Origin: Candidatus Campbellbacteria bacterium
Lineage (GTDB): Bacteria > Patescibacteriota > Minisyncoccia > Phycocordibacterales > EsbW-18
Direction: 5' to 3'
Assembly: GCA_045863475.1 (NCBI GenBank)
Contig: BTUR01000003.1
Location: 8,647-72,646, forward strand
Length of the DNA: 64,000 nucleotides
The notes under the pieces were generated by a model. That model was given only the letters and a program-made list of their open reading frames with translations, had not been told where the DNA came from and ran no database searches. Of the stretch, positions 3,864-26,454 are shown piece after piece. Numbering within the stretch: position 1 is the stretch's first letter; every line of letters begins with the position of its first letter. The position numbers were made by a program, and so were the translations under genes.

Positions 3864-3873
3864 ACGTCGTTGT

Positions 3874-4640: not shown

Positions 4641-4654
4641 ACGTGCTATGTATT

Positions 4655-5842
<1,188 letters not shown>

Positions 5843-5912
5843 AGTACGGTCAGTGTACGCCCTCCCAAGCCAGTTTTCTAGTTCCTCAATCTTATTTACC
5901 TATTCGCGCGAA

Positions 5913-7468: not shown

Positions 7469-7471
7469 TGG

Positions 7472-8026
7472 TTATTTCTTCTTTTTCTTCTTTAGAATGC
7501 GTTTTTTAAATTCAGAAAAGGTCATGAGGGTTTTCATGTCTTTCATGCGGTCTACGTAGACAACACCGTTGAGGTGGTCAATTTCATGTTGAAAGATGCG
7601 TGCCCACAGACCCGAAGCTTTCTCGGTAATTCTTTTTCCTTGTTCATTCGTGTACGAAACGGTTATTGACTCTGAGCGGGGAACGGAGCCACGTACTCCT
7701 TTTAGACTCAAACAACCTTCCCAATCAGGAACCTTTTTGTTTGAAAAACGTGTGATTTTTGGATTGACAATAACAATCGGTCCTTTGTGGGGCAATTTCG
7801 GTCGTGTTGGAGTCGGATGCATTTCCATGACAGCGATTGCAAGCGACACATCGATTTGTGGTGCGGCGAGTCCAACACCTCCGACCCGTCGCATCGTATA
7901 AATCATGCGCTGAATAAGGTCTTTGAATTTTCTTGTTTTTAAAAATCCAGGAGATACGCGCTTGGCCTTTTTACGTAGAACAGGGTTCCCAAACTCTGTT
8001 CTCGGAAGAACGTGTTTTTTAGGCAT
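7472..8026 (-). CDS. def: peptide deformylase
   Basis: Motifs GVGLAAPQI, EGCLS, QHEIDHLNG. Start chosen at MPKKHVLP because the longer ORF would overlap the tRNA-Gln gene. Confidence 0.85.
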   Translation of the reverse strand: MPKKHVLPRTEFGNPVLRKKAKRVSPGFLKTRKFKDLIQRMIYTMRRVGGVGLAAPQIDVSLAIAVMEMHPTPTRPKLPHKGPIVIVNPKITRFSNKKVPDWEGCLSLKGVRGSVPRSESITVSYTNEQGKRITEKASGLWARIFQHEIDHLNGVVYVDRMKDMKTLMTFSEFKKRILKKKKKK

Positions 8027-8111
8027 ATTGGAAAGAATACGCCTGTTTTGGAGAGTCGGAAAGGGATTGAAAAAGGGTCCAAAATGGCGTAAAATGCGCT
8101 CCGTACGACGC

Positions 8112-8182
8112 TGCCGGATCATCTAATGGTAGGATACATGACTCTGAATCATGTCATCTAGGTTCGAATCCTAGTCCGGCAA
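8112..8182 (+). tRNA. tRNA-Gln (anticodon CTG)
   Basis: Acceptor TGCCGGA/TCCGGCA, anticodon stem CATGA/TCATG with loop CTCTGAA, T-arm CTAGG-TTCGAAT-CCTAG. Its 3' end serves as an integration site and is repeated downstream. Confidence 0.8.
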
Positions 8183-9637
8183 CAAAGTTGAAATTTCTCG
8201 ATTTGGGGCACCTTTTGCAATAATCGAAAAGGGCTTTTTATATTGTAAATTAACAATTTCTTTATCTTTAAAGTAAACGTTCCAAAGTAGAGAATTCAGT
8301 ATCTTGTATTTTTTCTCATCACTACCATCCAAAAATGTTTTCGTGGCTCTACTGCTTTCTAAAAAGATTTTCTTGGTCTGTTCCAAAGTATCTTTACGAG
8401 ACCGTGCTTTATCTTCAAGATCACTAAGCTGGCTATCAATCTCAACCCTACGATTGCCTGAGACACTCATTTTTGACCTATAAAGCTCGTCTGTGATTAT
8501 TCCCGAGGCGAATCCATCAGTCAGCCGGGACTCACGCTCTAGGAGCATTTTAAGCTCCTCTCGAAGGGCGTCGATGGCTAGATCACGTCTTTCAGAGTCT
8601 ATACCTATTTTTTCTCGAGCAGACTGGTACATGATTTCAATTAAATCTTCGTCGAAGTAAAGAGTCTCGAGTTCATGCCCTAATTTTTTAACGATGTCCT
8701 CCTCACGCATGTACAATGACTTCTGAGAACAATTTCCCTTACCGTTCGTACAGTAGTAATAACGATGACCTTTCTTCAAAGATGCAGTGAGCATACATCC
8801 ACATTCATGGCATCTCATTGGACCACGAAGTGGGAAGAAGAGCGTTTGTCTTTTAGGGCGAGACGTTCCATTTAGAACTTCCTGTGCCCGATTAAAGAGA
8901 TCTTTTGTAATTATGGGTTCATGGGCACCTTGATAAAATTCACCATCACGTTCCATCATTCCGTAATAGAAAGGATTTACGATTACTCGATGAACAACTG
9001 AGCGAAACACCTTTCCTCCGGATGGAGTTCGAAGCCCCTCTGAAAAAAGAATGTTGGCAATGTCTCTAAAAGATTTTGTACCTGTTGCATATAACTCAAA
9101 CATCCTGGTAATCCAGTGAACCATCGTTGGGTTAATAACGACAGACTTTGTAGAAGGATTATTTAGGTAGCCATATGGTGCACGATTTGGCCACTCGCCA
9201 CGTTCTAACTTTGCTCTATTTCCACGCTTAACATTTGTGCTTAAATCTCTGACATATTGATTTGCCATTCCAAGCTCTACAGCCATCATGAGAACATTGT
9301 CTGTCGGGTAGTAATCTCTTTCAAAAGTTTTTATGTGTTTGATGGTGTTTTGTTGTAGCAACCAACTCACGCTTCCACCGTCCATAGGGTTTCTTGCAAG
9401 ACGATCAAGTTTCCAACAAAGAATACCGTCCGCTTTTCCATTAGAAAGTAACCCCATCATTTCATTAAAGTAGGGGCGACCGGGTGCTTTTGCAGACATA
9501 CTCTCCTTAAACGTTCGCACAATTTGAATCTGTTCCTTCTCAGCAACACGAAGAAGTTCTGATTCTTGAGAATCAAGCGACATTATTTGGCGGTCTTCTG
9601 ATTCGGATGATTTTCTACAGTAAAGAATATATCGCAT
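8171..9637 (-). CDS. large serine recombinase (resolvase/invertase N-domain, recombinase domain and zinc ribbon)
   Basis: N-terminal catalytic region YCRKSS...DRQ...SLDSQ, central recombinase domain, C-terminal zinc ribbon CHECGCM...YYYCTNGKGNC. Its stop codon lies inside the tRNA-Gln 3' end. Start codon uncertain; the long ORF runs to 9658. Confidence 0.85.
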   Translation of the reverse strand: MRYILYCRKSSESEDRQIMSLDSQESELLRVAEKEQIQIVRTFKESMSAKAPGRPYFNEMMGLLSNGKADGILCWKLDRLARNPMDGGSVSWLLQQNTIKHIKTFERDYYPTDNVLMMAVELGMANQYVRDLSTNVKRGNRAKLERGEWPNRAPYGYLNNPSTKSVVINPTMVHWITRMFELYATGTKSFRDIANILFSEGLRTPSGGKVFRSVVHRVIVNPFYYGMMERDGEFYQGAHEPIITKDLFNRAQEVLNGTSRPKRQTLFFPLRGPMRCHECGCMLTASLKKGHRYYYCTNGKGNCSQKSLYMREEDIVKKLGHELETLYFDEDLIEIMYQSAREKIGIDSERRDLAIDALREELKMLLERESRLTDGFASGIITDELYRSKMSVSGNRRVEIDSQLSDLEDKARSRKDTLEQTKKIFLESSRATKTFLDGSDEKKYKILNSLLWNVYFKDKEIVNLQYKKPFSIIAKGAPNREISTLLPD

Positions 9638-9644
9638 ACTATAG

Positions 9645-10421
9645 TTAGCATACACCATCGTCTGGAATTTTGAAAAGACGGTGTCGACACTTTCCTAACC
9701 ACTGAGTTTCGTACTCCTGATCAAATTCGGCAGAAGTTTCTTGTACCTGATAGTCATCTAATATCGGCCAGATAGGATAAGTACCCGAGAGAAATCTTGG
9801 ACGGGCGATATTTCTGGAGGCAACATACGCCTTCTTATTCTTTAGTCTCGGATCAATAAATGCTTTTGACATATATTTTGCGAGATAAAAAGAAAGTCTA
9901 TTTGAACCATCTGTTTTCTTTAGGAAGACGTGACCTCTTTTCCAGGATCTTCTAAGTGAACGAGTTTTCCGTTCTTGTACGTATACTTCAGTGGGTAACC
10001 CCCAGAACAAAGCGTGGAAATGAACTGCTCCACGTTTTTGAAACTCCGGGACACAGATATACTTGAAATCTTTTCCGTATTTATATCGGAGAGATTGGAC
10101 AAAAGTCTTGTAATCTCTGTATCCGACGGCAATATCGGTTTCGTTCTCTTTATAGGTAAGAGTAACGAGTAAAGGAGATTGAGATCCTGACAGGTTGCAT
10201 GCCACAATCCTTCTAAAAGCCATATGTGCGCGTTTAGCATTATCCTGTCTTTTCCCCAACTGTTTTTTCGAAAGAGTATCTTGTCCATCAGCTCGAATAT
10301 CCTCACTTGCATGAGTACTGCCATGACTTCTACGGGATCGTCTGGGGATCGGCTTCGGCTCTTTTTCGAATTCAAAGAGTTCCAGGTTATTTCCGTAGAT
10401 GATAATTTTTTTGTATGCCAT
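9645..10421 (-). CDS. HUH-superfamily rolling-circle replication initiator (Rep)
   Basis: Motif I LLVTLTY, motif II (HUH) VHFHALFWG, motif III YLAKYMSK. 258 aa. Confidence 0.7.
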   Translation of the reverse strand: MAYKKIIIYGNNLELFEFEKEPKPIPRRSRRSHGSTHASEDIRADGQDTLSKKQLGKRQDNAKRAHMAFRRIVACNLSGSQSPLLVTLTYKENETDIAVGYRDYKTFVQSLRYKYGKDFKYICVPEFQKRGAVHFHALFWGLPTEVYVQERKTRSLRRSWKRGHVFLKKTDGSNRLSFYLAKYMSKAFIDPRLKNKKAYVASRNIARPRFLSGTYPIWPILDDYQVQETSAEFDQEYETQWLGKCRHRLFKIPDDGVC

Positions 10422-10439
10422 TTTTTCATTTGTATTAAG

Positions 10440-10649
10440 TTAGTTAACTAGCAAGTCAGAAAGAGCCTGGTTCTCGCGCCCACGCACGCGCGGAGAACCA
10501 GGCTCTTCCTCTGCCAACGCCAAGAAAACAGAGCTCAAAACACCAGCATACTCACGAGCAGTATCGATTGAGATCGTTTTCGAGTATCGTTTGTTGAAAT
10601 AATCCTGAATTTTCAGAACTAGTTCTGTTGAATAAATAAACCTCTCCAT
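10440..10649 (-). CDS. hypothetical small protein of the mobile-element module
   Basis: 69-aa ORF in the minus-strand operon between the 210-aa protein and Rep. Confidence 0.3.
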   Translation of the reverse strand: MERFIYSTELVLKIQDYFNKRYSKTISIDTAREYAGVLSSVFLALAEEEPGSPRVRGRENQALSDLLVN

Positions 10650-10696
10650 ACAGGGGAGAGGTTAAAATTCTTATATTACGGTGATCTACCGTACAT

Positions 10697-11329
10697 CTAC
10701 GGTAGATATGCCGGATTTATTCTTACAAAACCTCGATCACTAGAATTAAAAAGGAATAAATCAACAACTTGAACTTCTTTTGCTACTCGTTTTTGAATAA
10801 CGCCACATGCGTCGTAGTACCTTTTCCCCTTAAATGGCTCACCCTTAAAAAAAGTTTCATGTATGTCGATATAGTCAGATGGCTCCTTTAAATCATGAGA
10901 AAACAAGTGTTCAAGCACGTAGCACCCCACCTCTTTTGAATCTAGACTTCCAAACACTATTTTTTTATCTTTGACTTCCAATACTCCATCCTTGAAAGAA
11001 AATCTAATTTTCTCATCGTCATCCGTATCAGTCCCTAAGTTTTTACAAATTGCTGGGTGTGCCTCCAAGTTTATGCAGTATTGTCCAAAAAGTTCCTCAT
11101 CGTTTGAATTTGCCGGAGTCGCCAAGTAGATATCTCCAACACCAATTACTGCGTAGTGTTCACTGATTTTATGTTTCAATATAGAAACACCCGCATCCAT
11201 TGAAAGACCCTGTCTTTTAAAGTTTACCTCTGAAAGAGTAATTGGGAAAAAATCGTCCTCTTGCTTTTGCTCGTGTGCAGGAAGGGCGGCACAAATTAAT
11301 TCCAGTACCTTTCGAACGTCGACTTCCAT
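10697..11329 (-). CDS. hypothetical protein of the mobile-element module
   Basis: 210-aa ORF immediately downstream of the XRE regulator, same strand. No recognisable motif. Confidence 0.45.
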   Translation of the reverse strand: MEVDVRKVLELICAALPAHEQKQEDDFFPITLSEVNFKRQGLSMDAGVSILKHKISEHYAVIGVGDIYLATPANSNDEELFGQYCINLEAHPAICKNLGTDTDDDEKIRFSFKDGVLEVKDKKIVFGSLDSKEVGCYVLEHLFSHDLKEPSDYIDIHETFFKGEPFKGKRYYDACGVIQKRVAKEVQVVDLFLFNSSDRGFVRINPAYLP

Positions 11330-11337
11330 AGGTGCCC

Positions 11338-11550
11338 TTAAAAGTCCACAAGATCATTAACGCGCTTTCCCAAAGCGCGTGCAATTTTCTCCATATTTGT
11401 GAGGGTGATATTTTTCTCTGCACGTTCAATCATTCCGATATAGGTTCTATGAACCTTGGCTAGTTCTCCCAAACGCTCCTGGGAATAGCCCTTTCGCTCA
11501 CGTTCCTCTCGCACCCTTTTGCCAAATTGTATGAGTATTTGTTTGTTCAT
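11338..11550 (-). CDS. XRE-family helix-turn-helix transcriptional regulator (Cro/CI-like)
   Basis: HTH region QERLGELAKVHRTYIGMIERAEKNITLTNMEKIARAL. First gene of the minus-strand Rep/recombinase operon. Confidence 0.8.
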   Translation of the reverse strand: MNKQILIQFGKRVREERERKGYSQERLGELAKVHRTYIGMIERAEKNITLTNMEKIARALGKRVNDLVDF

Positions 11551-11562
11551 ACCTACACCCAC

Positions 11563-11760
11563 AGTGTAGGTAGTTGCTAACTATGGTTCTACATACTATA
11601 GTTAGCATATTATGAACACCTATTATCGCCCCCTTCTTTATTTTATCTGCGGGCTCATCCTAAGCTTTGTTATATTGTCCTGGCTCAAATAAGGGCTGAT
11701 TTGTAACGCCAAACGTGCTACAATTGCTTAAAATATGGCTAATATGCTACTCCAAAACCT
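11563..11760. promoter_or_regulatory. divergent promoter/operator region between the XRE-Rep-recombinase operon and the nucleotidyltransferase operon
   Basis: Perfect inverted repeat CCTACAC-ccaca-GTGTAGG at 11564-11584. Inverted copies of the 9-mer TAGTTAGCA (TGCTAACTA at about 11574-11582 and TAGTTAGCA at about 11600-11609). The 17-mer ATACTATAGTTAGCATA recurs at 9637-9654 at the recombinase start. Confidence 0.4.
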
Positions 11761-12651
11761 ATGGCCACCACGCTTAAAGAAAGCTTTAGACAATTTGCAT
11801 CAAATGTAAATATTACAGATCGTCAAACGACGATTGTCTCAAACTGCAGGAATAACATTGTCAGTAAGATTGGTGCAAAATTGTCTTTGCACTCGGAACA
11901 GCCGTCAAAACTAATTGGTTCGTACGACAGAGATACTTCAACAAGATATCTAAGTGAGGGAGATGTTGATGTGATGGTTGTTTTACATTATGGAGACAAC
12001 GAAGACTGGGATAACAAAGACGGTGTTTCAAAATCGTTGAATCGGTTTAAGTCCATCCTACAAGAAGCATACCCGAAAACTACCTGTAAGATCGATAGAA
12101 ACTGTGTCACGATGAAATTATCCGAATTCCGTTTGGATGTCATTCCAACGTTTAGGTGGAATACCGGAGAATATACAATTCCAGATACACATCGTGGACA
12201 GTGGCTAAAAACTAACCCGGTAAGATTTGCCGAAGAGGTTACACGAATTAATAAACGAATGGATGGGACATTTATTCCCTTGATAAAAATGGTTAAGGCT
12301 TGGAACAGAGAATATACAAACAAACTTAGAGGATTTCACATCGAATGCATGATGATGGCACACTACAAGAATTATGATAAATCATACACGTATGATTCGA
12401 CCCTGAATGTGTTTTTTTCCAATCTTCCAAATTACTTAAATACAGCGTCATATGATCCAATTACAGGAGATAGGGTTGATTTATATCTCGACAACAGTTC
12501 TCTGGGCAACGATAGACAAACTTTTGTAAAGAGGGCTCAAAATACAGCAAAAAAATCTAAAGAAGCATACGAGGATGGAGAAAAATATCCGATCGTAGCT
12601 GTTGATGAATGGAAAGACATACTCGGTGAATTTTTCCCAGCTTATGGATAA
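11761..12651 (+). CDS. minimal nucleotidyltransferase of the SMODS/CD-NTase type
   Basis: Signature GS-x11-[DE]-x-D in GSYDRDTSTRYLSEGDVDVMVVL, plus a downstream third acidic strand motif RLDVIP. About 296 aa, typical for SMODS/cGAS-DncV-like enzymes. Confidence 0.6.
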   Translation: MATTLKESFRQFASNVNITDRQTTIVSNCRNNIVSKIGAKLSLHSEQPSKLIGSYDRDTSTRYLSEGDVDVMVVLHYGDNEDWDNKDGVSKSLNRFKSILQEAYPKTTCKIDRNCVTMKLSEFRLDVIPTFRWNTGEYTIPDTHRGQWLKTNPVRFAEEVTRINKRMDGTFIPLIKMVKAWNREYTNKLRGFHIECMMMAHYKNYDKSYTYDSTLNVFFSNLPNYLNTASYDPITGDRVDLYLDNSSLGNDRQTFVKRAQNTAKKSKEAYEDGEKYPIVAVDEWKDILGEFFPAYG

Positions 12652-13471
12652 TCAACAGAAAGCAATCCAACTAAATCAAATTGCTAGAATGCTTTTTAAT
12701 AATGCATCCATTAAGTGGCAATTGTCTATAGGATTAGAACTACTGGCTGGACTCATTGGAGTGGTGGCAACTCTATTGGCAACCACTTTAGGTTGGCAAA
12801 TTTCTAGTGCCATTTGCGTTGTTGTTCTATTGCTCGTTGCCTATTACCTATGGTACTCATTCGAGAAAGATTACGATAACGCAGAAACAATGAGACGACA
12901 GTCAGTGCTAACAGAAGGACTTGGTTGGCCTATGACTGATGCCCAATTTTCTCATTGGAAAAGCAGGGTTGCGTCAAAACTTTTACAAAAGGCACTATGC
13001 AACAAACGTGATGATGATTACTACACCACAACCGAGAACGTAGGACCAGAACGTTTATTGCAGATGACGCAAGAATCAGTTTTTTGGACTAGGAATCTTT
13101 ATGAAAGGCTTTTTAAATATATACTGGTGTGTTTGGTGTTAGTGGTAATCTCTCTCATTATCACTTTAAATATTGCGGTATTACCTCAAGACGAACAAGT
13201 CAGGTTGAACATCCTACACTTTATTTATCTGGTTATACCGCTACTGCTCACGATTGATTTTTTTGGTTTAGTTCTTCGTTTGCATCGTGCGATTCAGTCT
13301 TTACTGGAAGTCGAAAGAGACTTAGATCGATTAACTAAAGCTGAACATTCCGTCGAGCATATAATGAGATTGGTCGCGGAATATAACTGTATACTTGCTT
13401 CAGGAGTACCTATACCTAACTGGCTATTTTCTCGTCATCATGATGAGATACAGGCGTGTTGGAAAGAATAA
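12643..13471 (+). CDS. multi-pass membrane protein, candidate effector partner of the nucleotidyltransferase (SLATT-like?)
   Basis: Start ATG overlaps the upstream stop (ATGGATAA). Two N-terminal TM helices and two later TM helices. The ORF track gives the start as 12602. Confidence 0.5.
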
Positions 13472-14019
13472 ATATGTTAAACCGAATTTTTAAAAAGAAA
13501 AATACCCCATATTTCATAATAGTCATACTATTGGTTTGGGTTGCGTATCAGTACCTAGCAATTGCTAGTCTTAAGTCAACCGAGCTTTATCTGTATTCTT
13601 ATGTACCTCATGTTGAATTGAGTAGCACAAAATATCAGTCTGGAAGCGAGACACTATTTCACATCACAGGATTTGTAAAATTTAACAACACTACAGACCA
13701 ACCACGAAGACTTTGGCAATATCAGATTATTGAACCTTCAAACAAAATTGATGGGAGTGGAAATCGTATATACCTACTGACAGACATTATAAAATTGGAC
13801 TATGTACCACCGAGATATTTTGAACCAGTAGAAATCAAAGAGGTTCAAGATACAGGTTCTCTCGTTACCTTCACTGATGAGGCTGGCAACATATTCAGAA
13901 TCAACAAACTAACCGAAGAAGTATCGGTACAGGACACAACAGGAGATTCAACAACCCTTATAACAAATGAAAATGACTATAAGGACTTTATGAGAGAGTT
14001 TCTTCGGGGAGAGCAATAG
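13456..14019 (+). CDS. membrane-anchored protein, third gene of the nucleotidyltransferase operon
   Basis: Start overlaps the preceding gene by 16 nt. Single N-terminal TM helix (YFIIVILLVWVAYQYLAIA) followed by a beta-rich soluble domain. Confidence 0.45.
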   Translation: MLERINMLNRIFKKKNTPYFIIVILLVWVAYQYLAIASLKSTELYLYSYVPHVELSSTKYQSGSETLFHITGFVKFNNTTDQPRRLWQYQIIEPSNKIDGSGNRIYLLTDIIKLDYVPPRYFEPVEIKEVQDTGSLVTFTDEAGNIFRINKLTEEVSVQDTTGDSTTLITNENDYKDFMREFLRGEQ

Positions 14020-14062
14020 TGGTTCCAATATCGTCCCATAATGCCAACTCGATAACTATAGT

Positions 14063-14770
14063 ATGCAGGTAAAAACTTACTTGAACACCACCAAGGAAGA
14101 GGTGGAAGCAAAAGAACATAACATTTGGATTGGGATAAGTCTCGGAAACAAATATTTCACCAAAGAAAACATCCACGCATACATTTTGTGGGCACTTAAG
14201 CATACGAAAGATGATGTGCTTGTGGCAATTATTGACGATATCTATGCAATAAATCTCGAGGTTTTTGATAAGCGATCAAAGGACTCTTCACTTCGTAGGG
14301 CGCGCAGAAAGGGCGATACAAAGGCCGTCGAGGTTCAGGAAATTGTCGATGGTTTGTCTGGTAGGGATAAGGCGCGGGTTCATATAGTTCGGTGGATTGA
14401 CTTAATCAACTCAAAATACCACTCATACAGAACCAAGATACTGTATGACGAGTTTGAATCAAATAAAGCTTTTCACGACTACATTCTCGAGATTATCAGG
14501 GAAGGAAGAAGTGATAGGTTGCAAGAGCTAGACGAAGCGGGGATAGAAAAGTTGGCGGAGTATGTTCTTAAGGAGATACCAGTTTTCATCAACGGGGCAA
14601 AATACAAGACAAAAGATGGGTGGAAAACATACTCACTTATTCCATATCCAGGTCTTACAAAACTCGACGAATTGTTTATTGGTTTGCAGAATAAGGATCT
14701 TTTCTCCGAACTTGCGGAAAAACTAAAGATAACTGATAAGATTGCTATACTCGAGGCTTATCCTCGTTAA
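14063..14770 (+). CDS. tRNA-dependent cyclodipeptide synthase (CDPS)-like protein
   Basis: GISLGNKYF matches the AlbC catalytic-serine pocket GISAGNSYF, and AEYVLKEIPVF matches the AlbC YVLAEAPLF region containing the conserved Tyr/Glu. Size of 235 aa and a basic RRARRK patch also fit the CDPS family. Confidence 0.6.
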   Translation: MQVKTYLNTTKEEVEAKEHNIWIGISLGNKYFTKENIHAYILWALKHTKDDVLVAIIDDIYAINLEVFDKRSKDSSLRRARRKGDTKAVEVQEIVDGLSGRDKARVHIVRWIDLINSKYHSYRTKILYDEFESNKAFHDYILEIIREGRSDRLQELDEAGIEKLAEYVLKEIPVFINGAKYKTKDGWKTYSLIPYPGLTKLDELFIGLQNKDLFSELAEKLKITDKIAILEAYPR

Positions 14771-14820
14771 ATAAGGCGACGGTTCCAACATCGTCCCATA
14801 ATGCCAACAATGGAAAATTT

Positions 14821-14855
14821 GGCGGCTTCTGCCGCCTGAAATTTTGCATATTTTG
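14821..14855 (+). terminator. rho-independent terminator after the CDPS-like gene
   Basis: GGCGGC-TTCT-GCCGCC hairpin followed by TGAAATTTTG. Confidence 0.4.
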
Positions 14856-14916
14856 CGCCGGACTAGGATTCGATGGCCGCAGGCGCGCCATTGGTCCAAG
14901 CGCCGAGGCGGGGTCG

Positions 14917-14986
14917 AGAGTACTTTGCATTTTGTCGTGTACGCGAGCAAAATGCTTAGTAACTCGTGACAGAATCCTGGTCCTAT
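14917..14986. repeat. attC-like imperfect palindrome plus tRNA-Gln-3'-end-like core, copy 1 (copy 2 at 21532..21598)
   Basis: CGAGAGTACTTTGCATTTTGTCG-loop-CGAGCAAAATGCTTAGTAACTCG followed by GAATCCTGGTCC. It is about 90% identical to 21532-21598. Confidence 0.6.
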
Positions 14987-15048
14987 AGGGTTTACGGATC
15001 GAAGGAGAATCCTAGTCCAATAACATTAAGATTTAATCCAATTCATAA

Positions 15049-15678
15049 ATGATATTTCTCACCTCAAGTGTCGGTTCCGTTGCCACACATCTCTACAAGA
15101 ACTTTCTTGCCGACAAAGGGTTTATATCGGTGCTTTTTATTGATACTGCGGCTGAACCAGAAATCGGCAACGGAGAAGATGATGGGTGGCTTCAAAATGA
15201 CCTTCAGTCTCTTCGGGATCAGGGGTACAGAGTGGATCGGTACACAATAACAGGGAAGGAGCGAGGTGAGATTGAAAGGAAGCTCGATGAGTATGATGTT
15301 ATCTACATGTCTGGTGGCAACACGGCTTATTTACTCGACCAGTTGCAGAAGACAAACTCCTTCACTCTAATCAAGGAAAAGGTTGGTCACGGCAAGCCGT
15401 ATATCGCTACGAGTGCAGGTTCGATTATCGCCGGCCCCAGAATTCCCGAGTATCTTAGGGAGGGGGAGCCTGCTCTCGATGATTACACCGCATTCGGTTT
15501 TGTTAATTTTGTAGTGGCCCCGCATTGGGGTTCGGATATATTTAGAGATGAGTACATAGGAGGAAGAATTGAAACCGCATACAGGCTTGATCAGCCGCCG
15601 TATGTTCTTTTGAACGATATGCAGTATATCTTCGTCAACGACGACGGTTTAGTTAGAATCGTAGAGACAAAACCATAA
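15049..15678 (+). CDS. peptidase family S51 (dipeptidase E / cyanophycinase-like)
   Basis: MSGGNTAYL (GGNT motif) and the nucleophile-Ser motif ATSAGS, plus a downstream His (PHWGSD). 209 aa. Confidence 0.7.
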   Translation: MIFLTSSVGSVATHLYKNFLADKGFISVLFIDTAAEPEIGNGEDDGWLQNDLQSLRDQGYRVDRYTITGKERGEIERKLDEYDVIYMSGGNTAYLLDQLQKTNSFTLIKEKVGHGKPYIATSAGSIIAGPRIPEYLREGEPALDDYTAFGFVNFVVAPHWGSDIFRDEYIGGRIETAYRLDQPPYVLLNDMQYIFVNDDGLVRIVETKP

Positions 15679-15716
15679 CTCGAATCCTAGTCCGGGGTAT
15701 TTTAATTTTTTCAACC

Positions 15717-16883
15717 ATGAAAGTTCTACTCACCGGTGTTGCTGGAACGGGAAAATCGACGCTCACAAAAGCCTTGGTGGGAAGAGGAATTGCAGCGATA
15801 GACCTCCACGACATCCCCGGTCTGTGTTATTGGCAGGACAAAAAGACAAAACAAAAAGTTGAATATGTTCCAACCAACTCGCGAGAATGGTTTGATACGG
15901 TGGACCGCTTATGCGACATCGAGCAATTGAAAGAGGTTCTTAATCAACAAGACAGCATTATTGTCGCAGGTACAGCAGGCGAGAGTCAGAGCGAATATCT
16001 TCCGCTTTTTGATAAAGTTATACTTTTGCAATGTAGTCCAGAAACTGTTGTACGCCGTATGCAAACACGGACCAATAAATCTGGATACGGAAAAACAAAA
16101 GCAGAACAGGATGACACCGTTGAGTGGCAGAAAGGATTTGACTCAGAACTTCTCTCACGTGGTGCGATTCCTCTTAATACGGAAGGTGATGTTGATGAAA
16201 CCGTAGACAGAATTATTGAGATAACAAAAATACCCTCGCGGTCCTGGTCCAGAAACAAAAACATGAGTGCAACAAAGGAAGAAATTGAGGTTATTTTTCT
16301 TGAAATCGACAAAGACGAGGTGGAGAAGAAACTCGCCGCTCTTGGCGCCACAAAAACACGTGATTTCTTTTACCGGCATGCCTCATTCGATTATCCAGAT
16401 TATCGGCTCAATAAAGACAACAGCTGGATACGCTTGCGTGATGAGGACGGAGAAGTGCGATTGGCATTCAAGAAGCGTCTTGGCGTTACATCGCAGGACG
16501 GCAGCACGAACGACGAGGGTATGGAAGAAATTGAAACCACCGTGGGAAATTATGAAAATACCAAAATCCTTCTAGGAAAGGTTGGGTTCATCGAGAAACA
16601 CGAAGCAGAAAAGAAACGGACACGGTGGCAGTTGGGGGAGACAGAATTCGATATCGACACATGGCCGGGCATCCCGACGTTCCTTGAAATCGAGGCACCG
16701 TCATGGGAAGCGATTGATGAGGCAACGCAATCCCTCGGGTTGGACCCGAAGAGCAGAAAAATCTGCTCGGTGAACCAGGTGTACCGCATGTACGGTATGG
16801 ATGTTGATGATTATCAGAAACTCAGCTTCAACGGATTGGTCAAGAAACAACCGAATCTTAGTCCGGCAACAAATAAAAAATAA
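15717..16883 (+). CDS. fusion of a P-loop (uridine-kinase-like) kinase domain and a CYTH domain (CyaB/thiamine-triphosphatase fold)
   Basis: N-terminus LLTGVAGTGKSTL Walker A. C-terminal half carries IRLR and the terminal EFDIDTWPGIPTFLEIE motif typical of CYTH domains. The N-domain is paralogous to ORF 18978..19478. Confidence 0.6.
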   Translation: MKVLLTGVAGTGKSTLTKALVGRGIAAIDLHDIPGLCYWQDKKTKQKVEYVPTNSREWFDTVDRLCDIEQLKEVLNQQDSIIVAGTAGESQSEYLPLFDKVILLQCSPETVVRRMQTRTNKSGYGKTKAEQDDTVEWQKGFDSELLSRGAIPLNTEGDVDETVDRIIEITKIPSRSWSRNKNMSATKEEIEVIFLEIDKDEVEKKLAALGATKTRDFFYRHASFDYPDYRLNKDNSWIRLRDEDGEVRLAFKKRLGVTSQDGSTNDEGMEEIETTVGNYENTKILLGKVGFIEKHEAEKKRTRWQLGETEFDIDTWPGIPTFLEIEAPSWEAIDEATQSLGLDPKSRKICSVNQVYRMYGMDVDDYQKLSFNGLVKKQPNLSPATNKK

Positions 16884-16888
16884 TTTGT

Positions 16889-17020
16889 ATGCATAAGGCA
16901 GAACCATCTGAAGAGCTGTTGCAATGTTATGACGAGGAAGGAAATCATTCCGAACCGCCAATTGCAGAGCTATCTGGAAATTGTAATTTTCATACTCCAT
17001 ATATTGACTTTCCAATATAA
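16889..17020 (+). pseudogene. truncated duplicate of the 5' end of the Nudix gene
   Basis: MHKAEPSEELLQCYDEEGN... is highly similar to the Nudix N-terminus at 20030 (MHKAEPPQELLQCYDDQGS), then diverges and stops after 43 codons. Confidence 0.5.
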
Positions 17021-17158
17021 AGATGATATAATCCCCATCGGAGGCATCAGGAGGTGCTTCTTCCAAAACAACCATTTCGGAGGGAGGTCTCCTTGAAAAA
17101 CGAATATCCTGATTCACGCTGGTTGAGCACTGCGCTCGCCCTGCCTGCCGGTCAGATC

Positions 17159-17896
17159 ATGGCTGAGAAGTTCAGTGTGGGCACAACCTCGGTTTGGAAG
17201 TCCGACCGGACTCCCGTCACCGAGGCCGACACCCAGATCAACGAGCTCGTCCTCAACGCACTTCGCCGCCACTACCCCCACATCCACGTGATCTCGGAGG
17301 AAGGCAATGGCGAGGTGGACGGCGCCGAGTATCGCATCCTCTGCGATCCTCTCGACGGCACGTTTGCGTTCATGTACGGGCTTCCGATTTCGTCGTTCTG
17401 CATCTCGGTGCTCCGCGAGAACACGGTCCTGTCGTCGGTCATCTATGACCCGTTCTGCAAGAGAATGTGGTCGGCGGATCGAGGCAAGGGCGCGTTCCTC
17501 AACGGAGCTCCGACGCGGGTCAACGTGATCGACGGCATCACGAAGCCCAATCCGGTGAACGTGTGCATCGTGTGGTGGCAGGGATGCTACTACAATATGC
17601 ACGCAGTCGCTGGTGAGGTCATGGCCGCCAACATGCACGTCATGCAACCCATGACGATCGCACTATGTGGAGGCCTCATCGCTTCGGGCACGCTCGAGGC
17701 GACTGTGTTTCCCGGTCAGAGAGGTTGGGAAACGGCTGCGATGGGTCTGATTGTGGAAGAGTCCGGTGGCAAGGTCACCGACATCCACGGCAATCCCGTC
17801 CAGTACGGACCGACCGCCGAGATCGAAGGGCACATCATCAGCAACGGCACCCTCGTTCACAACTCGCTTGTCGATATCGTGCGGAGGTGTCAGTAA
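17159..17896 (+). CDS. inositol monophosphatase family phosphatase (SuhB/CysQ-like, possible 3'(2'),5'-bisphosphate nucleotidase)
   Basis: DPLDGT metal-binding motif and WETAAMGLIVEESGG (WDxAAG-like). GC is clearly higher than in neighbouring genes. Confidence 0.75.
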   Translation: MAEKFSVGTTSVWKSDRTPVTEADTQINELVLNALRRHYPHIHVISEEGNGEVDGAEYRILCDPLDGTFAFMYGLPISSFCISVLRENTVLSSVIYDPFCKRMWSADRGKGAFLNGAPTRVNVIDGITKPNPVNVCIVWWQGCYYNMHAVAGEVMAANMHVMQPMTIALCGGLIASGTLEATVFPGQRGWETAAMGLIVEESGGKVTDIHGNPVQYGPTAEIEGHIISNGTLVHNSLVDIVRRCQ

Positions 17897-17967
17897 CAGG
17901 AATCAGGCAGAAGACAGGGACCCAATGGCCACGAGCCAGTGGGTCCCTTTTGCTATATACTTTTTAC

Positions 17968-18933
17968 ATGGATATACTCTCAGCTTTTAAAGAGGGAAAG
18001 GTAGATGGAGAAAACTCAACACCTGAACATATTGTTACGGGTATTTCAAACATTTTTGTATTTGAAACAAAGGCATACAAACTCTATAAGAGTGACAGTC
18101 AATTTTTTAACGAGAATTTCAACGACCTGTCTAAGAAAGAAAATAGATTCTCTTTCACGAGGAAAGATTTTGAATGGAATAACCGTCTGAGTCCTGAGAT
18201 TTACACTCAACTAAAAGGGGTGGTGGTTAGTGATGGTCGAGTTAAGTTTGTCGATCCAACAGATTCTGTTGAAGAGCTTGTGATTGTTATGAATAAGATT
18301 GACATGTCAGATCAGGTCATCCGAAAGCTTGTAGACAATCAGCTGTCACTTAACGATTGTTATGAAATCGGAAAGCAGTTCGGCGAACGCTCTTTAAAAC
18401 TTCCTCCGGCAAGTGTGAATATAACTGCGTACAAAGATTTCCTCACTCGTCATCACGATGAAGCTGCTTGGATAAAGAGTGTGAAGGAGGTGCCGGAAGA
18501 TGAAGCCGACAAGTATCTTACGTTCGTTAAAGATTGTATCGAGAAATACCGCGAGATCCTTGAAAGTTCTAACCAAATAGGGCTCTGTTTAGATGTGCAT
18601 GCTGATAACGCAATTTATACGAATGGCACCTTTTTGCCCATAGATACGTATGCACCAAAGGAAGCCTGGCTGTATGGATTCAAAAATATAAATATCTACA
18701 GAATTGCGACGGATTTCTATGTCTTCCTGGGTGAGGAAGCTTTTAATGAGGTTATTCGTGGTTATGAGGATGCAACTGGTCAAAAGCTTCCAAGGGACTG
18801 GGATACTTTCATGGTTGTTTATTGTGAGATCATCATGTGGCCGTATCAATACATGCTTGCCGAAAAACAACCTTGGAGAAAAGATATCGCAGAAAAGCAT
18901 CATACATTTTTGAGGTCGTTGGTGCTTAAGTAA
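17968..18933 (+). CDS. hypothetical protein with possible kinase-like (APH/protein-kinase fold) catalytic region
   Basis: 321 aa. LDVHADNAIYTNG resembles an HxDxxxxN catalytic loop and IDTY a metal-binding Asp. The start is set at ATG 17968 because the long ORF overlaps the previous gene. Weak assignment. Confidence 0.4.
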   Translation: MDILSAFKEGKVDGENSTPEHIVTGISNIFVFETKAYKLYKSDSQFFNENFNDLSKKENRFSFTRKDFEWNNRLSPEIYTQLKGVVVSDGRVKFVDPTDSVEELVIVMNKIDMSDQVIRKLVDNQLSLNDCYEIGKQFGERSLKLPPASVNITAYKDFLTRHHDEAAWIKSVKEVPEDEADKYLTFVKDCIEKYREILESSNQIGLCLDVHADNAIYTNGTFLPIDTYAPKEAWLYGFKNINIYRIATDFYVFLGEEAFNEVIRGYEDATGQKLPRDWDTFMVVYCEIIMWPYQYMLAEKQPWRKDIAEKHHTFLRSLVLK

Positions 18934-18977
18934 AATTCCCAGCATCGTCCCATAAGGTCAACAAAAAAATTCTTACC

Positions 18978-19478
18978 ATGAAAATTTACGTAACCGGTAT
19001 TTCCGGATCAGGTAAAACTAGTATCGCTCGACTTCTTAATGAGCACGGTGTATCGGCCGTCGATATTGATGAAATTAGCCACTGGGAAAATAAAGGGACA
19101 AAAGAAAGAACGGGATGGGACCACGATAAGAGCGACGAATGGTACGCGACACATGAGTGGATTTGTGATATTCAGAAACTGAAAGAGGTGCTTCTGTCAT
19201 CAGAGCATATTGTGGTTGTTGGACACGCGGCCAATCAAGAGGAGTACTTTCCTCTTTTCGATAAATCGTACGTGCTCCTGTGTAGCCCTGAGACCATTGT
19301 TGCGCGTCTAAACGCGAGAACGGATAATGATTTTGGAAAACACCCTGCCGATCAAAAGAGAATCCTTGGTTGGCAAAAAAGCTTTGAATCTGAAATGATC
19401 GAGAAGGGCGCAGAGCCACTAGACGCGGAGCGACCCTTAGAAGAAGTTATTGCGGATATCCGTTCAAATTTTTCATAA
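18978..19478 (+). CDS. stand-alone P-loop kinase, paralog of the kinase domain of 15717..16883
   Basis: Walker A GISGSGKTS. Shares W..C[DI]I[QE]KLKEVL and PLFDK..LL.CSPET.V.R motifs with the kinase-CYTH fusion. Confidence 0.6.
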   Translation: MKIYVTGISGSGKTSIARLLNEHGVSAVDIDEISHWENKGTKERTGWDHDKSDEWYATHEWICDIQKLKEVLLSSEHIVVVGHAANQEEYFPLFDKSYVLLCSPETIVARLNARTDNDFGKHPADQKRILGWQKSFESEMIEKGAEPLDAERPLEEVIADIRSNFS

Positions 19479-19521
19479 AAACGACGATTTCAAAACGATT
19501 CTGTAGGGCTAGTAAGTAAAT

Positions 19522-20022
19522 ATGTCAAAACTTTACATCATGAGTGGCGTTGGTTTTTCTGGAAAGTCGACGCTCGCAAAGAAAATCGCAGAATATACTG
19601 GAGCTATTCTTGTCAGTCAAGACGGGCTTTTCTTTGAAAAGGAGAAGGAGTTGGGTATCGACCAAGATAGTGATGAACAGTGGCGCATGCTTCTTGATAT
19701 GTGTCTCGAACGGATCCGTCAACTTCTCTCGGAGGGAAAATCGGTGGTGTTTGATAACACAAACACTCGTCACCAGCATCGCGAAGAAGTTCGGCAAGTT
19801 GCTCTGGCTACTGACGCAGAACCCATTGTTGTTTTTCTCGATACACCAATCGAGGTTCAGAAAGAGAGACAGGAAAGAAATCGAATCACTAAAGAGCGGC
19901 ACGACGTGAAGCAGGAATATCTCGACCAAGCAATCGCAGAACTGGAGGTTCCCGGAGAAGATGAGAACGTGCGAGTCTTTAAGCCAGACACAAAGTTGAG
20001 CACTTTTCTTGAAAGTCTCTAA
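19522..20022 (+). CDS. P-loop kinase, polynucleotide-kinase/AAA_33-like
   Basis: Walker A SGVGFSGKSTLAKK and a DNTNTRHQHR motif (DxTN as in T4 Pnk-type kinases). 166 aa. Confidence 0.55.
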   Translation: MSKLYIMSGVGFSGKSTLAKKIAEYTGAILVSQDGLFFEKEKELGIDQDSDEQWRMLLDMCLERIRQLLSEGKSVVFDNTNTRHQHREEVRQVALATDAEPIVVFLDTPIEVQKERQERNRITKERHDVKQEYLDQAIAELEVPGEDENVRVFKPDTKLSTFLESL

Positions 20023-20029
20023 TAATCCT

Positions 20030-20578
20030 ATGCATAAGGCAGAACCACCACAAGAACTCTTGCAATGCTATGACGATCAAGGAAGCCCGATTGATTCGAA
20101 AACACGAGCAGAGATAAAAGCTAACCCAGGAACATATTGGTGTGGTGTTGTGAACGTGTGGGTGGTAAATAGTGAGGGACAACTTCTTTGCTCAAAGCGT
20201 TCGAAAGGTCTTTCTGGTAATCCGGGGAAGTGGCAGACATATTTTGGAGGACATATTCCTGCCGGGCTTGGTTTTCGAGAAGCGGCGGTGAAGGAGTTGG
20301 GGGAAGAGACTGGTATTCATTTTGAAGAGAATAGTCTCTTTTTTATCCATCGAGGAAAAGACGATGTGAACAAGAAGTTTTTTGAGAGCTACGCAGTTCG
20401 CTTCAATGGTCAACCGAGCGATCTGGTTTTTACTGACGGAGAGATAACAGAGGCGAGGTGGATGCCTATTGAGGAATATGTTGCTGACGAGGCACAGAAC
20501 CCAGAACGGTGGTGTAATGGGTGCAAACCTGAACGCCGAAAAGCCATTCAAGAGTGGGTTAGTACCTTTCAAAAATAA
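20030..20578 (+). CDS. Nudix hydrolase
   Basis: Nudix box GGHIPAGLGFREAAVKELGEETGI. Confidence 0.8.
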   Translation: MHKAEPPQELLQCYDDQGSPIDSKTRAEIKANPGTYWCGVVNVWVVNSEGQLLCSKRSKGLSGNPGKWQTYFGGHIPAGLGFREAAVKELGEETGIHFEENSLFFIHRGKDDVNKKFFESYAVRFNGQPSDLVFTDGEITEARWMPIEEYVADEAQNPERWCNGCKPERRKAIQEWVSTFQK

Positions 20579-20598
20579 AAACCGTTTCATTAAACATC

Positions 20599-21000
20599 AT
20601 GATCTACCTCTCCTTTTTGTTGAACCTTCCATGGACGCTCATTGGGATCATCTCTGCTTTATTTTCTGTCCCGAGGAGTGTTGAGTTTTCAAAAAATCCT
20701 TTCACGATCACTTTCCGTGTTCGTAGTTTTTGGTGGTACAGATGGCTTCCTGGAAAGCAAGGAGTGCGGGCAATGGTACATGGAAATGTTGTGCAGCTTG
20801 CACCGACGGCAGATGAAAAAGACTTGGAGCACGAACTTGTTCATGTAAAACAGTACGAACGAGCACCACTTATTCACCCACTTCTTTATTTCATTGAAAC
20901 TCTTCGATATGGGTACAAGCAGAACAAGTACGAAGTAGAAGCTTATGAAAAGGCCGGTAATCTTTATTGCTGCCTTAAACCCCCTGCGGTTAAATCTTGA
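20599..21000 (+). CDS. small membrane-associated protein with HExxH motif (putative metalloprotease-like)
   Basis: N-terminal TM helix. EHELVHVKQYE contains HExxH. 133 aa. Confidence 0.35.
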   Translation: MIYLSFLLNLPWTLIGIISALFSVPRSVEFSKNPFTITFRVRSFWWYRWLPGKQGVRAMVHGNVVQLAPTADEKDLEHELVHVKQYERAPLIHPLLYFIETLRYGYKQNKYEVEAYEKAGNLYCCLKPPAVKS

Positions 21001-21069
21001 CAGGTATTCACAGAATGCTACATTGAGCGCGGAGTAACTGAATCCAGAACGCAAACCAGGAGGAATCGC

Positions 21070-21438
21070 ATGAGCCAGCCAGTCGTCGATCTCAACAGTC
21101 TCCCGTTTCGGCCCTCTCGTTCGACCGGTACCGGTCGGACCCACTTCTTCTCGGGACAAGTCGGTCTCAAGGAAGGGAAGCTTGTCGAAGGGGGGTTGGA
21201 AGCGGAGCTTCGGCAAGCGCTCGAGAACATCAAACAGCTCCTGGACGAGCTGAAGATCTCTCGAAGCCAGGTGTGCGACGTGACGGTGTTTCTCGTGGAC
21301 ATGAACGACTACGCGAGGATGAATCACGTGTACGCCGAGTTCTTCGAGGGTCACTACAAGCCCGCACGCACCTGCGTTGCGGTTGCCGCACTTCCGCTTG
21401 GTGCGCGCATCGAGCTCAAGGTGGTGGCAAGCAGCTAG
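21070..21438 (+). CDS. RidA/YjgF/TdcF-family reactive-intermediate deaminase
   Basis: Motifs VTVFLVDMNDYARMNHVYAEFF and PARTCVAVAALPLGARIELK. GC-rich. Confidence 0.8.
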   Translation: MSQPVVDLNSLPFRPSRSTGTGRTHFFSGQVGLKEGKLVEGGLEAELRQALENIKQLLDELKISRSQVCDVTVFLVDMNDYARMNHVYAEFFEGHYKPARTCVAVAALPLGARIELKVVASS

Positions 21439-21531
21439 AAGTTCCCGGAGCTTCACAGAAAAGGAGTCGCACCCAAGACTTATTCTGTGAGGCTCCTTTT
21501 CGTTTTTACGGGCATATTTGGGGCGGGGATC

Positions 21532-21598
21532 GAGAGTACTTTGCATTTTGTCGCGCAGGCGAGCAAAATGCTTAGTAACTCGTGACCGAATCCTAGTC
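21532..21598. repeat. attC-like imperfect palindrome plus tRNA-Gln-3'-end-like core, copy 2
   Basis: Second copy of the 14917-14986 element, ending in GAATCCTAGTCCG. Confidence 0.6.
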
Positions 21599-21716
21599 CG
21601 AGGGTTTCCGAGTTCCGTATGTCCGGCACCCCGAATCGAAGAAGAAAGGCGTACTCGCGGTCCTGGTCCGGCAACGTTGTTAAATAACTAGACGTTAATA
21701 AACTAAAGAGCGAATT

Positions 21717-22286
21717 ATGATAGAGGGGAATTATATAAATCCAATTTTTGTGGCTGGCCCGATAGACCGAGAAAATTTTTATAAACAATTCATGGCTCGT
21801 TTCTCTGAACTTATGCAGAAAACAAAAAGTGGAGACACGATAACTGTATTAATTAATTCTGGAGGAGGAGAAACTCATACCGCACTTGCTATATACGATT
21901 TACTTAAGTCGACAGACAGAACCTGCGTCGGAGTAGTAGCTGGTGTTGCGCAGTCTGGAGCATCATTGATACTTCAGGCTTGTGATAAAAGATTGATTAC
22001 AGAAAACAGTCATATGATGCTACACAGAAGTAATGTTCAGGTATCTGGAAAGATTGTAGATGCTCAATCCAATCTCAATACCTTCAAATCTTTGGATGAT
22101 AAATTTTATGAAATTTATGCACAAAAGGCTGGAGAGCGAGTAGAGAAGATTTCAGAAATGGCCAGCCAAGACAAACACTTTAATGCGGTCGAAGCACTAG
22201 GCGCTGGTTTGGTGGATGAAATTATCAAAGCAGAAGTAAAAAATAAAAAAGCTCTCACATTTATTAACCAAGCCTCAAATAAATGA
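21717..22286 (+). CDS. ClpP-family serine peptidase (S14), stand-alone
   Basis: INSGGGE...AIYD and VAGVAQSGASLIL (catalytic Ser) ... MMLHRS (His). 189 aa in an AT-rich tract. Confidence 0.65.
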   Translation: MIEGNYINPIFVAGPIDRENFYKQFMARFSELMQKTKSGDTITVLINSGGGETHTALAIYDLLKSTDRTCVGVVAGVAQSGASLILQACDKRLITENSHMMLHRSNVQVSGKIVDAQSNLNTFKSLDDKFYEIYAQKAGERVEKISEMASQDKHFNAVEALGAGLVDEIIKAEVKNKKALTFINQASNK

Positions 22287-22500
22287 AACAGAATTTTCCA
22301 GCGCGCTTCAAGATTACTGATGGCAAGGACGTGTATTTTTTGTGTATAAACCACGCCTTACCACAGGGTGTGGTTCCGGACGGCGTAATAATAGAAGAAA
22401 TTCCGGATGAAGCAGGGATACCTTGCAGAAACTGTTCCTCAGATTTTATTGGTAGGTAAGCTGTTTAAAAAGGCTTCAACATCACCCTAAGAAACTAGCA

Positions 22501-25709: not shown

Positions 25710-25725
25710 TTTTAATCCACACACT

Positions 25726-26448: not shown

Positions 26449-26454
26449 AACACA

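Follow-up and report, generated by a model that had tools for sequence, protein, structure and literature searches.

The 64,000-nucleotide stretch of contig BTUR01000003.1 (assembly GCA_045863475.1) analysed here, hereafter the window, contains a tRNA-Gln(CTG) gene whose 3′ end is overlapped by a gene for a large serine recombinase (LSR), followed by a rolling-circle replication initiator (Rep), a defence system and a succession of small accessory genes (Table 1). The host belongs to Candidatus Campbellbacteria (Patescibacteria); an annotated protein of a genome from this group matches the recombinase at 100% identity, and Logan contigs of the sequencing runs DRR491768 and DRR491769 carry an arrangement identical to that of the window. 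These genes lie in a low-GC mosaic island of ~8.2–23.3 kb, with 35–46% GC and two patches of 59%, in a surrounding genome of 51–53% GC. A first-pass annotation, made from the sequence alone, had described an integrated element with a serine recombinase and an HUH-type Rep at this tRNA gene, together with an integron-like cassette array delimited by copies of the tRNA 3′ end; it missed the extension of the island to ~23.3 kb.

Domain matches agree with the first part of that description. The recombinase matched Resolvase (PF00239, 9e-21), Recombinase (PF07508, 5e-15) and Zn_ribbon_recom (PF13408, 8e-5, just under the curated cut-off), and it possesses the catalytic-serine motif YCRKSS and four cysteines that are conserved in the alignment. 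As claimed, the gene ends inside the tRNA, with its stop codon (8171–8173) and last three codons sitting within the 3′ end of tRNA-Gln. The adjacent Rep has the features of an HUH initiator, including a PF23343 match at 5e-21 and the motifs HFHALF and YLAKYMSK; its RepSA match is weak. The small open reading frames (ORFs) that follow, at 10440–10649 and 10697–11329, gave no informative match in a domain search. The defence cargo is a minimal type I cyclic-oligonucleotide-based antiphage signaling system (CBASS), with PADLOC matches for the cyclase (9e-65) and the 4TM effector (3e-22) and no ancillary genes.

A total of 4224 homologues of the recombinase were found, and those with names are from Patescibacteria. 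A profile built from 25 homologues led to 80 loci from genome assemblies, mostly annotated as Patescibacteria lineages, which form the basis of the family comparisons below. Of the 76 loci whose sequence extends far enough, 58 have a convergent tRNA gene no more than 300 nt from the LSR 3′ end, in most cases directly adjoining or overlapping it, and the target tRNAs are those for Gln, Ser, Trp, Tyr, Ile, Pro, Lys, Arg, Glu, Asn and Gly. A homologous Rep gene adjoins the LSR in 53 of the 80 loci. Long direct repeats of the tRNA end were considered as element boundaries, in keeping with the classical model of displaced tRNA fragments, and were dropped; most family loci have no such repeat within 10 kb, and the model is thus unfit for this LSR family. 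In 49 of 51 loci the LSR ORFs of the family extend antisense into the target tRNA, over 13 to more than 400 nt, and the T-loop, where reached by the ORF, is translated as D-S-N/D (K-S-N once).

Comparison of the 80 loci revealed a distinct class of site, here called P-type, that the first-pass annotation had missed and that was first seen as a minor repeat (D5) in the window. It has the form GTTCCAAC-N5-CCCA..., ending in the four terminal bases of the local tRNA, and its consensus may also be written GTTCCAAC-n-TCGT-CCCA, followed by approximately ten bases that end like the local tRNA. A scan of the window found three sites, S1–S3, as the only ones above the shuffle maximum of 9.6 bits (20 shuffles), all of them inside the island. 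The tRNA-end fragments of the first-pass annotation were likewise scored as candidate P-type sites and rejected, all being below 8 bits. Across the family, the motif GTTCCAACnTCGTCCCA (two mismatches at most) occurs in 54 copies on the tRNA strand versus 1 on the opposite strand, and all 54 are element-side, 0.6–9.7 kb past the LSR (53 of them at 2.5 kb or more), with none on the chromosome side; a position weight matrix gave a strand ratio of 69:1 in favour of the tRNA strand. The site is also present in 7 of the 14 loci that lack a Rep homologue, and P-arm P′ (attP-like) junctions are found directly beside the LSR in five loci (L061, L081, L063, L055 and L005), where a P-type arm adjoins the LSR-proximal arm as would be expected of attP. 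A search for dyad symmetry in a reconstructed attP gave no clear inverted motif; LSR coding sequence dominates the P′ consensus.

The position of the motif relative to the tRNA follows a strict spacing rule. When the T-loop sequence GTTCGAAT is aligned opposite GTTCCAAC, the site motif is shifted outward by exactly 5 bp, and in a scan of offsets comparing the 16 nt past the motif with the local tRNA, identity was 0.61 at offset 5 and 0.27–0.38 elsewhere. At positions 11–14 past the motif, identity between site and tRNA reaches 0.80–0.91 and then drops to ~0.3. The sequence of the right half-site varies in step with the tRNA that is targeted, a match reached by none of 2000 permutations. In serine integrases, the zinc-ribbon motif lies at positions 16–24 of attP and 11–19 of attB, which is a shift of 5 bp (PMC3783163); the same displacement is found here, in left half-sites only. 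This spacing would put the crossover 10–11 nt past the motif, where it coincides with the 4-nt block of identity (CAAC in the window). We conclude that the P-type sites are best read as attR-type junctions of the LSR, joining a P arm to B′, and that the tRNA T-arm would serve as the left attB half-site.

Table 1. Features of the tRNA-Gln island (positions in the window; strand as + or -).
Feature	Position	Strand	Remarks
tRNA-Gln(CTG)	8112-8183	+	Rfam 62.5 bits; proposed attL
T-loop of tRNA-Gln, GTTCGAAT	8162-8169		Proposed B-type zinc-ribbon motif
4-nt core CAAC	8180-8183		Final four bases of tRNA-Gln gene
Large serine recombinase (LSR), 495 aa	8171-9658	-	Resolvase, Recombinase, Zn_ribbon_recom domains
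Rolling-circle Rep, ORF2/G2P type	9645-10421	-	HUH motif HFHALF; YLAKY
Two backbone ORFs, 69 and 210 aa	within 10440-11329	-	Weak conservation in other elements
HTH_3 (Cro/CI-type) regulator	11338-11562	-	
Type I CBASS cargo	11761-13471	+	CD-NTase (SMODS) 11761-12651; 4TM effector 12602-13471
187-aa ORF	13456-14019	+	No family match
Site S1	14022-14048	+	GTTCCAAT ATCGT CCCATAATGC CAAC; 31.8 bits
Cyclodipeptide synthase (CDPS) gene	14063-14770	+	One-gene unit between S1 and S2
Site S2	14782-14808	+	GTTCCAAC ATCGT CCCATAATGC CAAC; 30.4 bits
Terminator-like hairpin after S2	14821-14836		
tRNA-end copy, inverted	14858-14873	-	T-loop-to-acceptor segment, 16-17 nt exact; without CAAC
Non-coding module D1a	14910-15027	+	Imperfect palindrome and tRNA-end pieces 14972-14983, 15006-15027
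tRNA-end copy, degenerate	14972-14983	+	
tRNA-end copy	15006-15027	+	
Peptidase S51 gene	15049-15678	+	
tRNA-end fragment TCGAATCCTAGTCCGG	15680-15695	+	Exact 16 nt; without CAAC core
AAA_18 kinase-CYTH fusion gene	15717-16883	+	
tRNA-end fragment with core, CCGAATCTTAGTCCGGCAACAAA	16851-16873	+	21/22 identical; inside end of kinase-CYTH ORF
Truncated duplicate of NUDIX N-terminus	16889-17019	+	86% identical over 56 nt to 20029-20084
Inositol monophosphatase (IMPase) gene (59% GC), then ~344-aa ORF (40% GC) without assigned function	17054-18933	+	
Site S3, degenerate, after ~344-aa ORF	18936-18962	+	TTCCCAGC ATCGT CCCATAAGGT CAAC; 14.8 bits
Two P-loop kinase genes, NUDIX, 133-aa ORF, RidA/L-PSP gene	18978-21438	+	
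Non-coding module D1b	21526-21677	+	tRNA-end pieces 21586-21601, 21611-21618, 21659-21677
tRNA-end copy	21586-21601	+	Without CAAC core
Extra GTCCGGCA piece	21611-21618	+	
tRNA-end copy, degenerate	21659-21677	+	
ClpP-like protease gene and 259-aa membrane ORF	21717-23280	+	35-38% GC; distal island end

Taken together, the region is probably a composite island that was built at tRNA-Gln(CTG) by a Patescibacteria-wide LSR family targeting tRNA 3′ ends. As part of this best explanation, 8184–14808 would represent an intact, integrative plasmid-like element of 6.6 kb, consisting of the LSR, Rep, a helix-turn-helix (HTH) regulator, the type I CBASS and one extra CDPS unit. These limits follow from the arrangement of the sites, as S1 and S2 bracket the CDPS gene and S2 is then followed by a hairpin, giving an intact element with one nested unit; S2 is the probable outer attR. 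The remainder, to ~23.3 kb, would be older accreted material of mixed origin.

In the mechanism proposed, the zinc-ribbon motif recognised by the LSR in the left half-site of attB would be the tRNA T-loop, the P arm of the element would carry the same motif 5 bp further out, and strand exchange would take place within the last four tRNA bases. Such an exchange would leave the tRNA essentially untouched and generate no long direct repeat. Each P-type site to the right of the LSR would be an attR-type junction, composed of a P arm and a tRNA-like end and often followed by a terminator. Since each of these sites would be able to restore the tRNA end, excision could pair attL with any of them, and an element excising via one of several sites would either leave the distal units beside the restored attB or carry them off. 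A later arrival at the restored tRNA would place its own cargo in front. Repeated rounds could then give rise to tRNA-anchored arrays of small, co-oriented units without breaking the rules by which attP recombines with attB and attL with attR. We infer the crossover position, the alternative use of attR sites, the growth of arrays and the present-day activity of the element from this architecture. For S2, the predicted attP is GGTTCCAACATCGTCCCATAATGC-CAAC-AAAGTTGAAATTTCTCG and the predicted attB is GGTTCGAATCCTAGTCCGG-CAAC-AATGGAAAATTTGGCGGC; for S1, they are GGTTCCAATATCGTCCCATAATGC-CAAC-AAAGTTGAAATTTC and CCTAGTCCGG-CAAC-TCGATAACTATAG, respectively. A crossover in the last 4 nt of the tRNA also implies that the C-terminus of the LSR would be host-encoded when the element is integrated. 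The integrated form is predicted to end in ..LLPD* (495 aa) and the excised form in a P-arm-encoded ..LLALWDDVGTVALFNEDKPRV* (512 aa), and it is conceivable that this change could serve as an integration-dependent switch.

Arrays of P-type sites recur in the family. Two or more sites are present in 14 of the 80 loci, with as many as six (L006), four (L014) and three (L058) in individual loci. The units between sites have a median length of 941 nt and mostly contain one gene. In 18 cases versus 2, the longest ORF of a unit points in the same direction as the site, and in 13 of these 18 co-oriented units the stop codon falls 3–78 nt before the next site. Cargo includes Fic, NUDIX, reverse transcriptase, KilA-N, RhuM-Fic, receiver domain, methyltransferase and deaminase genes. 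In L113 (JGI Ga0452210_005297, 2787–12459), eight P-type sites follow straight after tRNA-Asn(GTT), with no LSR across the 12.5 kb examined. The final four bases of this tRNA, GAGC, are common to all eight sites, and several of the sites are followed by a terminator-like flank similar to that of tRNA-Asn itself. The closest homologue of the window CDPS outside its own genome (76% identical) is also encoded in this array. Two subtypes of site tend to alternate in L113, and its units include a methyltransferase gene, a GNAT-CDPS pair and an AAA_33 kinase gene. A co-oriented cassette array beside a recombinase is found in the family and, in weak form, in the window; with three sites, the window array is short and becomes interpretable through its family context. 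The first-pass proposal of a cassette array on a serine recombinase survives to the extent that co-oriented, mostly one-gene units recur in the LSR family and that the right half of their site mimics a tRNA end. The defining site is different from the one proposed, being the P-type half-site GTTCCAAC followed by 5 nt, CCCA.. and the 4-nt core rather than the tRNA-end copies that had been listed.

A P-type site was also observed in a locus of another kind. In L088, a Gln-type site of 44.6 bits (9541–9572) lies 430 nt upstream of def, in an orientation opposite to the window arrangement, and the encoded deformylase is 72% identical to that of the window; neither an LSR nor a tRNA was found within 10 kb of this site. 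In addition, the exact 17-mer GTTCCAACNTCGTCCCA occurs in a conserved phage coding region (antisense ..VWDDVGTF..) that accounts for almost all IMG/VR matches listed and is unrelated to LSR elements. These matches, at least 120 in number (L118–L237) and none with an LSR or Rep, were discarded as irrelevant, and the phage occurrence of the 17-mer is a trap for motif-only searches.

The tRNA-end copies on which the first-pass annotation was based are nonetheless real. With up to 3 mismatches, CGAATCCTAGTCCGG has 9 copies in the window versus 1.19 expected, a number reached in none of 100 shuffles, and the copies do fall at gene boundaries, as had been stated. Their coordinates required small corrections, e.g., the copy placed at 15668–15690 was off by ~10 nt. 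The imperfect palindrome of about 65 bp that had been noted at two boundaries is present as a 74-nt repeat, D1 (14910–14983 and 21526–21599, 92% identical), with a conserved internal hairpin (z = -4.9 and -2.3). Aligned with their flanks, the D1 copies extend to modules of ~120–150 nt, each with two or three tRNA-like pieces. Grouping the pieces by module leaves fewer independent copies, i.e., two modules, one inverted copy and two solo fragments. The listed copies form a second, heterogeneous class of repeats, and three of them lack the 4-nt core that the tRNA has in common with every P-type site. In a Rfam search of 7.9–24 kb the tRNA was the sole match, and D1 corresponds to no known RNA family. 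Other family loci have zero to two tRNA-end fragments each.

A non-coding module, represented in the window at 14858–15027 and 21526–21677, follows the last P-type site in the window and in L013, L049, L074 and L077, with an architecture that is conserved across different tRNAs: the local T-loop is repeated in inverted form at +66 to +100 nt, accompanied by a terminator hairpin and, usually, by a direct tRNA fragment at ~+190 to +225 nt. Viewed as a whole, the module is a long imperfect palindrome formed from the hairpin, the inverted T-loop copy and the direct tRNA 3′ fragment. A copy additionally separates tRNA and LSR in L016 and L074. A replication origin, a secondary attB and a scar are all conceivable roles for the module. 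An LSR in each of L049, L054 and L059 abuts a tRNA-end fragment in place of a full tRNA, suggesting that such fragments may be secondary targets.

The distal part of the island has a varied gene content. The IMPase (17054–17896) and RidA (21070–21438) genes have a GC content of 59%, which is above both the rest of the island and the core genome. The truncated NUDIX copy starts 15 nt past the tRNA-end fragment with core, and this partial duplicate points to an internal duplication or rearrangement of the island. Beyond the island, at 25678–27374 of the window, two neighbouring convergent ORFs encode extremely acidic, Asp/Glu-rich repeat proteins.

Several observations weigh against a composite island built by the LSR family. 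Conservative LSR recombination alone does not duplicate the B′ flank, which leaves the growth of arrays unexplained, nor does the proposed mechanism account for the initial loss of the backbone from units. Right-hand half-sites have no clear dyad symmetry. The tRNA-end fragments are of B type, with T-loop spacing, and those at 15680, 21586 and (inverted) 14858 run to GTCCGG without CAAC, such that they are not simple LSR products. Elsewhere in Patescibacteria, genes for S51, kinase, NUDIX and CYTH proteins are packed tightly into an operon that has no such sites, and the S51 and kinase-CYTH genes are accordingly no demonstrated cassettes. This, together with the finding that the fragments delimiting them are not P-type, leaves the first-pass view of the two genes as separate cassettes unsupported. 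Two family loci show internal sites of another origin: L049 contains two full LSR elements in tandem with a one-gene unit between them, and the 71 nt that come after an internal site of L062 are the remnant of an LSR 3′ end, identical to the end of the LSR gene on contig L047 of the same assembly. Thus, some internal sites arise by accretion and then deletion. Finally, the searches made yielded neither an empty site nor a circular junction nor a polymorphism between strains; a deformylase-based metagenome scan gave 27 relatives, none syntenic, and exact-protein look-ups with the deformylase, CAP, S51 and CDPS returned only the same strain with the same gene order. An exact look-up with the 4TM effector ORF found no record, and terminal overlaps indicative of circular forms were not found in small contigs.

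Regarding the operon, L238–L240 contain tightly overlapping genes for His_Phos_1, peptidase S51, methyltransferase, ASCH, AAA_18-NUDIX and CYTH proteins, functions that are scattered in the island. Homologues of the kinase-CYTH fusion occur either in an operon without sites or beside tRNA-Pro, again without sites.

Tandem accretion was already raised as an alternative in the first-pass annotation. In a pure form with subsequent decay, each site would be the attR of a separate full element whose backbone was later deleted, and arrays would be graveyards without current mobility. As a complete account this is rather unlikely, and it is right in part. The GC mosaic (35–46% in most units versus 59% in the IMPase and RidA genes), the truncated NUDIX duplicate, the degenerate S3 and D1 pieces, and the tandem elements and LSR remnant of L049 and L062 are all consistent with it, and tRNA genes are well known to host both tandem arrays and decayed remnants (PMC7192596; the tycheposon paper; cis-mobilizable elements). 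However, pure accretion would require many clean deletions, each of which spared one intact, co-oriented ORF that usually terminates no more than ~80 nt from the next site, and this would have had to recur in 14 loci and in L113. Furthermore, attL and attR are not integration targets of canonical LSRs, so that accretion, too, has to account for repeated insertion at a tRNA that is already occupied.

A second alternative is a strict analogue of the integron, in which single units would excise as circles and be re-inserted one by one by the LSR at a primary site beside the tRNA. Units that are promoter-proximal, mostly one-gene combinations of ORF and site are in its favour, as are the tRNA-like terminator flanks after sites in L113, which would be expected if a cassette-borne end restored the tRNA locus, and the presence of CDPS homologues in arrays at two different tRNAs. 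Nevertheless, this scheme is improbable. All array sites have the same polarity, with the P arm on the left and a B′-like flank on the right, and the known reactions of LSRs join only attP to attB, or attL to attR in the presence of a directionality factor (PMC3783163), a partner rule that conflicts with sites of one polarity. In addition, P-type sites lack attC-like palindromes, and cassette circles were not observed. Last and least plausible, with very little probability, is a role of the 17-mer outside recombination, either as a nick or termination origin of Rep or as coding sequence for the C-terminal tail LWDDVGT of the LSR in its excised form; the element does encode an HUH Rep, the minus-strand reading is in frame with the LSR after excision and the same 17-mer codes within unrelated phage genes, but the site persists in loci without a Rep homologue, conservation at the third position of the four-fold degenerate GTT and GGA codons comes close to that at the other two, which is not a codon-like pattern, and neither variant predicts the 5-bp T-loop offset or the co-variation with the tRNA.

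The composite island favoured here can be compared with several known systems. The nearest mechanistic precedent appears to be the staphylococcal cassette chromosome (SCC), and in particular SCCmec with its CcrAB and CcrC recombinases. In both cases LSR insertion falls at the 3′ end of a conserved housekeeping gene and leaves that gene functional, and several att repeats delimit tandem cassettes; for the present elements this likeness is one of architecture only. SCC cassettes without a recombinase can be mobilised in trans, singly or together, and their cargo is defence-rich (10.1101/2023.03.17.533233). The target here is a tRNA gene instead of rlmH, units are 0.4–2 kb in length and usually contain one gene as opposed to tens of kb, the hosts are Patescibacteria, a rolling-circle Rep is the partner, and mobility is a prediction.

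Integrons share with these elements a recombinase at one end followed by co-oriented, mostly one-gene units, each with a following site, and the occurrence of recombinase-free arrays, cf. clusters of attC sites lacking integron-integrases (CALINs). They differ in using a tyrosine rather than a serine recombinase, attI rather than a tRNA as the anchor, and folded single-stranded attC palindromes rather than double-stranded LSR half-sites of ~30 bp. Features specific to integrons are missing from the island: no Phage_integrase domain was found in any island ORF, as IntI would require, and in place of a 57–141 bp attC palindrome per cassette there are non-palindromic P-type sites of ~30 nt, with the D1 palindrome at two boundaries only. 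The elements of the family thus resemble integrons in layout and SCCmec in mechanism; the island is not an integron, and its mobility is a reading of sequence.

Tycheposons and other tandem tRNA islands (Islander/TIGER; accretion of cis-mobilizable elements, or CIMEs, in ICESt1/3) likewise integrate at tRNA genes, have new arrivals that displace older ones outward, leave scattered partial tRNAs and decayed remnants, and carry replication genes on the element. They mostly employ tyrosine integrases and displace long tRNA fragments, whereas exchange here would occur in the last 4 nt, true junctions are nearly free of tRNA repeats and the conserved mark is the P arm. Elements of the pSAM2 type, which are actinomycete integrative and conjugative elements (AICEs), and the filamentous phage phiRSM are small and pair a rolling-circle initiator with site-specific integration at tRNA 3′ ends, as here; phiRSM integrates at a tRNA. 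The pSAM2 integrase is a tyrosine enzyme and that of phiRSM is small and resolvase-like, and neither pSAM2-type elements nor phiRSM are known to carry site arrays. The phiRSM enzyme is a serine recombinase (PMC7192596). Finally, the left half-sites obey the same 5-bp attB/attP rule as those of phage serine integrases such as A118/LI, Bxb1 and phiC31 (PMC3783163), from which the family differs in that the tRNA T-arm supplies the motif, right half-sites are not recognisably symmetric and an element may have several attR-type sites.

The genomes of Patescibacteria are tiny, and few ways in which these bacteria exchange genes have been recognised. A literature search found no description of tRNA-targeting LSR elements or of such arrays in this group, its coverage being incomplete and the result an absence of evidence only; LSR-driven collection of cassettes in Patescibacteria is apparently as yet undescribed. 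It is tempting to suggest, tentatively and at somewhat less than even confidence, that these bacteria possess a previously undescribed, tRNA-anchored serine-recombinase cassette platform, a counterpart of the integron on another class of recombinase, in which the T-loop is the attB motif and small accessory and defence genes are lost, gained and reshuffled among elements and chromosomes by way of rows of attR-type sites. With only ~4 nt shared between tRNA and junction, such islands would escape methods that look for displaced tRNA fragments. The T-loop as attB would provide the serine-integrase toolbox with a natural and highly conserved class of targets, and the model predicts attP and attB sequences for hundreds of enzymes. 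For Patescibacteria themselves, a family of tRNA-targeting LSRs whose cargo comes in modular arrays would rank as a major carrier of accessory and defence genes.

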